Source: a virus (lineage: Duplodnaviria; Heunggongvirae; Uroviricota; Caudoviricetes). From it: 27,364 bases of DNA. The notes beneath the pieces are model-generated. The model saw nothing but the letters and a program-made list of their open reading frames with translations. It searched no databases and was not told the origin of the DNA. Shown piece after piece: positions 234 to 1,207 of the stretch (positions within the stretch are counted from its first letter, which is position 1; every line of letters starts with the position of its first letter). The stretch lies in the IMG/VR virus record IMGVR_UViG_2541047426_000009, positions 1 to 27,364 of that record; one strand, given 5' to 3'. The position numbers and the translations under genes are program-made.

Positions 234-566
234 ATTGATAACAGAGGGCGTTGCAGCGGGGTTGTCACTTAAGCGTATGGTCAACCTGACAACCCGGTGT
301 CCTCAACGGGGAAGGAATAACCCCGCCATACTTACCGCTGCGCCATTTCGCGGAGTGCCACAACCGGAAGCGCACGGTCGACGAAAATTTAACGACAGGC
401 TATCTATGAACCAGCAACCTCGCCGTGCGCTTTCGCGTTATGCTCTGACTTTTCAGAGAAATATCCTTTCAGTAAACTGTCAGTGCCGGATGTTCACCCG
501 TGTCCGGCGCACGCACTCCACTTCACCCGTGGAGAACTCCTTAATTACCAACCCTCAGGAGGGTGA

Positions 567-800
567 ATGTTAAAATCAACTCTTATTGCTAAATGCCTTT
601 ATCAAAATCGCATGGTAAGCAGCATTTCAATAGGCGAGTCTGCAGTTAAAAGTATTTTCGAAGAGTACTTTCCCGGGCATGATTTTAATAAATGGAATAC
701 CAAATTACCGCCAGCAGTTTCAACGCGTATTCTGAAAGCAACCGAAAGAGCAAGTACAATTCGCGTTAACTATTTCATTAAAGATTTGTGGGATCTTTGA
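567..800 (+). CDS. hypothetical 77-aa protein, convergent with and overlapping the 3' end of the 778-1185 minus-strand gene
   Basis: ATG preceded by AGGAGG 4 nt upstream; AT-rich; no recognisable homology. Could be spurious. Confidence 0.3.
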   Translation: MLKSTLIAKCLYQNRMVSSISIGESAVKSIFEEYFPGHDFNKWNTKLPPAVSTRILKATERASTIRVNYFIKDLWDL

Positions 801-1185
801 TATCCACAGAGCCTAAAGTATGTGCATATGGATGTGCTATTATGCGCCCTCGCAGATTTGCATCATTTTCTAAATTCACTGAACGAAACAGGGCATCAAC
901 AAGGCTCTGTACAATGCAAAGGCAATCGAAGACTGTCGCCGTTTCTGTTTTGATTGATGAAAGAACATGGCCATTCACGCAAACAGAAATTACCCGTTTA
1001 TTAACATCGCTTTCCTGCTTTTGATTATCAGAACCATATAGCCCAGAAAAAGCATTGCGCACATTACGAACCATATTATCGATGGTTTCTTTTTCTGCGG
1101 TACTAAGGTCAAGAGTAGCCAGTTGTGAACGAACTATATTCGATGCCATTTCCTGTAATGGCGTTGGTAAATCTTTAAATTCCAT
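778..1185 (-). CDS. hypothetical 135-aa protein in an AT-rich islet of the early-left operon
   Basis: ORF with GAGG Shine-Dalgarno 6 nt upstream of ATG; no motif recognised. Confidence 0.5.
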   Translation of the reverse strand: MEFKDLPTPLQEMASNIVRSQLATLDLSTAEKETIDNMVRNVRNAFSGLYGSDNQKQESDVNKRVISVCVNGHVLSSIKTETATVFDCLCIVQSLVDALFRSVNLENDANLRGRIIAHPYAHTLGSVDIKDPTNL

Positions 1186-1207
1186 TATTAGCCTCGTTGG
1201 TTAGCTA

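Follow-up and report, generated by a model that had tools for sequence, protein, structure and literature searches.

What are two small genes doing when they run into each other, tail to tail, within the early operon of a prophage, and do they act together? The question is posed by an AT-rich islet near the left end of a 27,364-nt stretch of Caudoviricetes DNA, the whole of which is referred to here as the window. An earlier note, made from the sequence alone, had singled out convergent ORFs at 567-800 (plus strand) and 778-1185 (minus strand) that overlap by 23 nt, each behind a ribosome-binding site, and this anatomy holds. In the ORF list of the window, A occupies 567-800 on the plus strand (77 aa, ATG start) and B occupies 778-1185 on the minus strand (135 aa, ATG start); the two converge and have 23 nt in common at 778-800 (TTAAAGATTTGTGGGATCTTTGA), and plausible ribosome-binding sites are seen in CAGGAGGGTGA, immediately 5' of the ATG of A, and in GAGGCTAATA, 5' of that of B. 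The islet itself, for which limits of 560-1190 had been proposed, spans 554-1187, a true structural boundary that those limits match. Its GC content is 39.1%, against 51.4% for the window, 50.5% for the left flank and 48.0% for the right flank, and just 2.8% of 634-nt windows are as poor in GC. Aligned to the Qin prophage of E. coli K-12 (L003), positions 1-553 match 4063-4617 at 95% and positions 1188-1426 match 3824-4062; the alignment stops exactly at 553/554 and at 1187/1188. Since the two K-12 flanks are contiguous and 95% identical, 554-1187 is a precise 634-bp insertion or deletion, a cassette without counterpart in K-12 Qin. With presence scored at 80% coverage or more, it is found in 646 of 5426 complete E. 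coli genomes. Its low GC, its absence from K-12 Qin and its occurrence in this share of genomes make the cassette look horizontally acquired, as had been supposed. The window DNA is identical or near-identical to many Shiga-toxin-producing E. coli and 'PPompW' prophages, and its counterpart in E. coli O157 Sakai is prophage Sp9, integrated at ompW, in which A is ECs_1762 and B is ECs_1763, both sequence-identical. The islet is a mobile two-gene cassette, namely ECs1762 plus ECs1763 of Sakai Sp9.

Judged by its gene content, the setting is a dicBF-type early-left operon of a Qin-like lambdoid prophage, in keeping with the earlier placement of the pair: a DicA-like repressor, ydfC, DicF, and dicB surround the islet. 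Read from the repressor, the order is the repressor gene (2062-2469, minus strand, 135 aa, annotated dicA or HTH protein and matching K-12 dicA in position and length), a 99-aa ORF known from annotation (1499-1798, minus strand; ECs_5719, phrog_21318), ydfC (1208-1426, minus strand, by RefSeq annotation, 95% identical to K-12) directly upstream of B, then B with A antisense to it, a long spacer, the DicF sRNA gene, and dicB, which sits just past the left end of the window. A DicC/Cro-like gene lies at 2546-2773 on the plus strand. DicF (183-232, minus strand), downstream of the cassette in the operon sense and syntenic with K-12 dicF, matches Rfam RF00039 over its full length at 43.5 bits (E 1.6e-7), yet below the gathering score of 48. 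The predicted operon promoter, TTGACC-18-TAAATT at 1934-1963 on the minus strand, comes from a consensus scan only and is followed closely by a 60-bp block that K-12 shares in its dicA-ydfA interval. The ydfC-dicF spacer (233-553) is common to K-12 at 95% identity, and its minus strand is the DicF precursor. Because native ECs1762 is made and there is no plus-strand gene upstream, the promoter of A probably lies within 233-553 on the plus strand; neither a consensus scan nor alignment to an element found outside E. coli (described below) revealed a sigma-70 site in the E. coli spacer that would convince as the promoter of A. A single terminator-like site, a weak one at 1231-1248, is present on the strand of A.

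Several features of this neighborhood deserve mention in their own right. Within the spacer common to K-12, positions 484-535 form two hairpins, GCCGGA...TCCGGC and CCAC...GTGG, whose loops hold the direct repeat TTCACCCGTG (493-502 and 522-531); these may serve the DicF precursor as sites of RNA processing or protein binding, or else belong to the 5' leader of A. Between DicF and the start of dicB, positions 30-181 on the minus strand give a sub-threshold Rfam match to STnc100 (32.3 bits, E 1.4e-4). On the plus strand at 1520-1720, overlapping the 99-aa ORF, runs a zinc-ribbon frame, MNTIKFSCPECGG-TAA-VFDTSF...CKNCGH..., with one in-frame TAA; read through that TAA, the frame has a match in phrog_4852 (E 2.9e-9, positions 10-54 of 194). 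The frame looks like what is left of a further gene antisense to the operon, and makes the 99-aa ORF annotation on the opposite strand somewhat doubtful. Related prophages carry PaaA2/ParE genes between the repressor and ydfA (L005 2694-3172 and L007 2685-3156), so the same early-left operon holds bona fide toxin-antitoxin cargo one slot upstream. Finally, in O157 strain PV15-279 an IS1203 (L001 9684-10896) splits the replication gene of an otherwise identical prophage; the window copy, ORF 3205-4320, is intact.

Both A and B are real protein-coding genes. For A, pN is 0.27 against a pS of 0.75, and for B the values are 0.40 and 0.78; pN thus stands well below a pS (about 0.75) that is saturated between lineages, and both frames are under purifying selection. 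A is predicted to fold as a five-helix domain (AlphaFold/AF2, mean pLDDT 96.8). Homologues of 77 aa with 55-72% identity occur in Klebsiella, Serratia, Dickeya, Xenorhabdus, Yersinia, Morganella, and Salmonella, their alignment retains 20 invariant columns, and an exhaustive profile search (E<=0.001) yields 163 clusters at 50% identity, almost all of them free-standing proteins of about 75 aa. In PHROG, A matches phrog_10348 at full length (1.1e-47 across 77/77). By tblastn against the phage collection, A is found in PPompW-type prophage records and in the inducible phage Evi alone, annotated hypothetical throughout, and a structure search of BFVD returned one uncharacterised homologue and nothing else. 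The idea that A is a uniformly basic nucleic-acid binder was dropped: the E. coli protein is basic (pI 9.5), and the family has a median pI of 5.8. RNA binding may therefore not be a trait of the family as a whole. A longer form also exists, in that A-like proteins of 115 aa (L108 1590-1937 and L109 395-742) bear a disordered C-terminal extension ending in ...NGRT and are encoded in a quite different context, between HNH endonuclease and terminase small subunit genes, with no B partner.

B is a composite. Its first 50 residues (MEFKDLP...AFSGLY; 1036-1185, minus strand) form a leader module with two predicted helices (residues 8-23 and 32-47), residues 49-62 are a predicted disordered linker, and residues 64-135 plus the stop (778-996, minus strand) make up what is here called the B domain, a predicted beta-hairpin with two helices. 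The last is homologous to free-standing proteins: it is 35-39% identical to the 77-79-aa partners of A in Klebsiella and Serratia, and its profile gathers 75 relatives. B as a whole matches phrog_1363 (4.8e-47 over 1-130) and the B domain matches phrog_23433 (1.7e-8); these two families and phrog_10348 are all listed in PHROG as of unknown function. In Citrobacter and in metagenomes (P0186, P0208-P0210), the B domain stands behind a ClpX-type C4 zinc finger (PF06689) rather than the E. coli leader. No match to A or B was found in Pfam, NCBIfam, PADLOC, or the PDB, nor any similarity of either to toxin, antitoxin, defence, or RNA-binding families or folds. The remark that neither protein has a recognisable motif is thus extended, by profile and structure searches, to the lack of any family of known function, and the 135-aa protein did not turn out to be a known housekeeping phage protein. 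With maxima of 0.59 for A and 1.58 for B in 19-residue Kyte-Doolittle hydropathy plots, both proteins are predicted to be soluble and folded, and neither to be a small hydrophobic membrane peptide.

Whether these two genes constitute a unit is less simple than it first appears, since in E. coli prophages they occupy a slot in which much else is exchanged. At the same operon position, the leader of B is joined to at least five unrelated C-terminal regions, giving proteins of 124/126, 122, 133, 135/201, and 208/212 aa. Likewise, the 5' leader and Shine-Dalgarno platform of A (522-566, plus strand, ..TTCACCCGTGGAGAACTCCTTAATTACCAACCCTCAGGAGGGTGA) is shared: in the form ...CCTTAATTACCAACCCTCAGGAGGGTGAA-ATG it precedes at least four unrelated small antisense ORFs of E. 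coli prophages (A77, which is A itself, S63, S73, and S91), two further small ORFs follow a second platform, ATGGAGGATAAAATG, and K-12 keeps the platform of A only up to 553, without the Shine-Dalgarno sequence. When large ORFs were cross-tabulated against small ORFs in 84 loci, the commonest large ORF, of 124 aa, had no small ORF in 37 loci; elsewhere the 124-aa class occurs with S91 or S73 and is then shortened to 106-109 aa, and the B domain pairs with A77 or, in its 201-aa form, with S63. The five variants had at first suggested a polymorphic toxin-immunity cassette, a notion rejected because the commonest large ORF is partnerless and one class occurs with several small ORFs. Since large and small ORFs turn over independently, the slot is best read as a hot spot of recombination that retains a conserved platform for antisense expression, and co-location within it does not by itself prove partnership. 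An ancient A/B module may be read as having been captured in the slot, where B became joined in frame to the leader ORF already resident. Other contents of the slot include, in six loci, a 148-aa convergent ORF downstream of the 124-aa leader protein (as in E. coli prophage L129), with two transmembrane segments apparent by eye followed by a helical region and without a match in Pfam; this ORF, too, may be an accessory gene expressed in the lysogen. Next to the 133-aa variant, the small antisense ORF at L103 3558-3680 (minus strand) appears frameshifted, with a 27-aa frame running from the Shine-Dalgarno platform and a 76-aa frame continuing one base out of phase; the members of its PHROG family, phrog_18692, are 92 aa.

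Such shuffling is what gives weight to the view that A and B are functionally independent accessory genes, or morons, which travel together by adjacency and whose overlap is frozen because both tails are needed. A slot that exchanges unrelated small antisense ORFs (S63, S69, S73, S91, S100) and large-ORF C-termini, and in which the commonest large ORF so often lacks a small partner, would accommodate two such genes readily. Further, each gene can be found alone: the B domain is without A in the 201-aa variant, and distant A-like proteins are without B in Psychrosphaera (L019) and in the 115-aa L108 variants. These A-like proteins without B count against a partner model, as does the pairing of one and the same E. 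coli A sequence with B domains about 22% apart. The 23 nt of overlap specify the C-terminal ends of both proteins, a conserved helix in A (FIKDLW) and a conserved tail in B, which is probably why the overlap cannot drift, and conservation of both tails at the protein level is just what independent genes would also show.

The behavior of the pair outside the E. coli slot points the other way. A survey of 96 loci holding A, reduced to 40 distinct A/B versions, found the overlap to be 23 nt in the same phase in 38 of the 40 and 26 nt in the other 2. In Klebsiella and Serratia prophages A again converges on a B-domain gene with a 23-nt overlap, the two are convergent in all A-containing prophage loci examined, and the pair persists at about 35% identity. 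A remote A (P0226, on phage contig L106) faces a B-like gene (E 2e-11), once more with a 23-nt overlap but with the pair flipped with respect to the early operon; a further remote pair overlaps by 75 nt as called by the gene finder. With contigs that end within the pair left out of the count, every A seen in the early or immunity regions of the prophages examined was accompanied by B, the exceptions among the surveyed loci being a non-prophage chromosomal copy, that of Psychrosphaera, and a contig ending inside A. By sequence comparison, then, the pair is conserved across Enterobacterales and beyond, and its pairing is far more than chance, an outcome that upholds the earlier suggestion to look for it in related prophages. 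That the same tail-to-tail overlap recurs in prophages of many bacteria indicates that A and B probably work as a pair, and co-inheritance beyond what a mosaic region normally preserves likewise favors partnership. Two independent morons should not keep their pairing, orientation, and overlap phase when synonymous sites are saturated, nor be moved and inverted as a unit in a region where mere adjacency is normally broken. Independence of the two genes is accordingly regarded as rather unlikely.

If A and B are partners, their placement with respect to the prophage switch becomes informative. In Klebsiella L008, cI-type operator repeats (ACAGnnAAAACTGT) lie at the right operator region and between the post-cI terminator and the start of B; in Serratia L014, the interval from the cI terminator to B likewise holds repeats, of a different operator sequence. 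From these positions B is the first gene past the left operators in both prophages, and A is antisense, farther down the operon. In L106, operator palindromes lie between the start of B and the early operon, and A follows, on the same strand, a gene in the repressor position, the repressor call being one of position only. In the window, the operon that follows the DicA-like repressor includes B, and A runs antisense to that operon. Each of these four arrangements, so far as sequence reveals, places B where the repressor can control it and A where it can be expressed in the lysogen. Further, 13 non-E. coli loci conserve, about 35 nt from the ATG of A, the motif TGnTAnnnT with a TTnACC box about 17 nt before it, which looks like an extended -10 promoter and is a candidate for that of A; the region upstream of A in E. 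coli differs from this element.

Expression of A in the lysogen also has experimental backing. RNA-associated proteins have been purified from UV-crosslinked Sakai under virulence-inducing, uninduced growth (Zammit et al., Nucleic Acids Res 2025, PMC7618764). Mass spectrometry of uninduced Sakai detected native ECs1762, which was among the proteins with significant enrichment after UV-RNA crosslinking; a tagged version of it, made from pBAD24, gave above-background label in a PNK assay for crosslinked RNA; the protein was remarked to be without a detectable RNA-binding domain; and no RNA targets were reported (PMC7618764). From this recovery and crosslinking it follows that A is translated in the lysogen and contacts RNA. 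The earlier note had entertained that the plus-strand ORF might not be conserved or might not be transcribed; it proves to be conserved, under purifying selection, confidently folded in prediction, and recovered as a native protein from Sakai. The crosslinking of A to RNA, which that note did not foresee, is the sole experimental handle on function. Expression from a repressed prophage, a feature looked for in exclusion and abortive-infection systems, is on record in the literature for A only.

Taken together, these observations lead to a proposal to which a probability of about 0.4 is given: that A is an effector expressed in lysogeny and B a repressor-controlled early partner, the two being made mutually exclusive through convergent transcription. 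The pair would be an autonomous two-gene module inserted into the dicBF-type early-left operon of Sp9. A would serve as the lysogeny-phase effector, probably acting on RNA, and B as an immediate-early partner; on derepression one would antagonise the other, either B acting on A, by binding or in some other way, or A acting on B. The geometry of the genes guarantees at least 23 nt of complementarity between their transcripts, and it is proposed that colliding transcription units and RNAs complementary over this length would make the two states exclusive: upon induction, strong operon transcription would shut A off, and in the lysogen the transcript of A would damp leaky expression of B. The asymmetry between the proteins, A evolving more slowly and B bearing varied N-termini and at times orphaned, is that expected of an effector and its antagonist. 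The payoff would most likely be that incoming related phages are excluded while the resident phage is itself immune, or else that leaky early-left transcripts are silenced at the RNA level. A sharper version holds that A is an RNA-binding protein of the lysogen, with a new fold, that silences early-left transcripts, both those leaking from its own prophage and those of superinfecting phages, that B is an immediate-early anti-A, and that the frozen overlap enforces their exclusivity. In this full form the idea is doubtful, although its implications are considerable: were A such a silencer and B its switch, they would constitute a layer of immunity or exclusion that works at the RNA level and is widespread among lambdoid prophages, in Enterobacterales and further afield.

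The same facts of placement and expression bear upon a more familiar possibility, that A and B are a usual toxin-antitoxin pair which stabilises the prophage or aborts infection. Two small proteins that strictly co-occur invite this reading, and the conserved A, never seen without B in prophage immunity or early regions, could be set against a faster-evolving B that is orphaned and varied at its N-terminus; PaaA2/ParE in the neighboring slot of the same operon in related prophages shows that such cargo is at home there. The earlier note had likewise regarded a convergent gene pair in the host-takeover operon as the sort of place where toxin-antitoxin or phage-exclusion modules are found. The coupled pair in such an operon stands; the classical type I and type II toxin-antitoxin layouts do not, and no toxin, antitoxin, or defence family is matched. 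The genes are convergent rather than co-transcribed, and neither product is a hydrophobic peptide. Further, arabinose-induced tagged ECs1762 could be purified from Sakai, a strain also carrying B (PMC7618764), so it was tolerated well enough for that purpose, although the presence of B tempers the point. With B behind a repressed promoter and A made in the lysogen, the arrangement is also the wrong way round if A is the toxin. A conventional toxin-antitoxin function is thus considered improbable.

A last alternative looks to the operon itself, supposing that the module is mainly a cis-acting regulator in which transcription of A, perhaps together with A protein bound to the long untranslated DicF precursor, holds down read-through to dicF and dicB, both of them toxic, and B is incidental. 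A is indeed transcribed head-on against the operon, between the operon promoter and dicF/dicB, and its product crosslinks to RNA. In Klebsiella L008 a weak DicF-like element (4874-4922, minus strand; 29.9 bits, E 0.019, below the gathering score) lies directly downstream of the module, an order that mirrors E. coli. The Serratia, Proteus, Photorhabdus, and L106 loci gave no DicF-like match, and with one weak extra match in Klebsiella a general link between the module and DicF was dropped. Moreover, K-12 Qin silences dicF and dicB without the cassette, and the strong protein-level conservation of B would be left unexplained. A role chiefly in cis is consequently judged very unlikely.

The pair has implications beyond this prophage. 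ECs1762 and ECs1763, whose use has so far been confined to the PCR typing of pathogenic E. coli, form an ancient, closely coupled module adjoining the prophage immunity switch, one of whose products is made in the lysogen and crosslinks to RNA, yet has no recognisable RNA-binding domain and no fold relative. If the effector and antagonist reading is correct, such a module would represent a new family among the lysogen-expressed systems that control superinfection or early gene leakage, and would give a function to the antisense expression platform inside the dicBF operon.

Known systems supply parts of this picture. HK022 Nun, a prophage protein of the lysogen whose gene adjoins the left early promoter region, acts on RNA and excludes superinfecting phage; ECs1762 resembles it in being made in the lysogen and in crosslinking to RNA. 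Unlike Nun, A is without an arginine-rich motif and is predicted to be a compact five-helix protein; the operator-adjacent gene here is B rather than the RNA-binding A, and Nun is not known to have a convergent protein partner. P22 SieB/Esc, lambda RexAB, and BstA/aba are lysogen-expressed accessory genes in or beside the immunity or early-left region in which a second element protects the resident phage, a logic that the proposed expression of A in lysogeny and of B under repressor control would share. SieB and RexB are membrane proteins, whereas A and B are predicted to be soluble and have no PADLOC match, and in contrast to all three systems the second element here is a separate convergent protein gene. 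Type I toxin-antitoxin systems such as txpA/RatA and bsrG/SR4 are convergent units with overlapping 3' ends and mutually antisense RNAs, and the A and B genes likewise converge and overlap at their 3' ends; both partners, however, are conserved folded proteins of about 75 aa, and neither is the small hydrophobic membrane toxin peptide that defines the class. PaaR2-PaaA2-ParE2 of O157 prophages is likewise a small module in the same early-left region, but type II systems consist of co-directional, co-transcribed genes with a known superfamily or fold, and A/B is convergent and unmatched. CsrA-FliW, in which a small RNA-binding protein is switched by a small protein antagonist, has no similarity to A/B in sequence or fold, and RNA crosslinking is known for E. 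coli A alone and the A-B interaction is putative; the mechanism deemed most likely for A and B is nevertheless of this kind, a dedicated small partner that switches a small RNA-binding protein.
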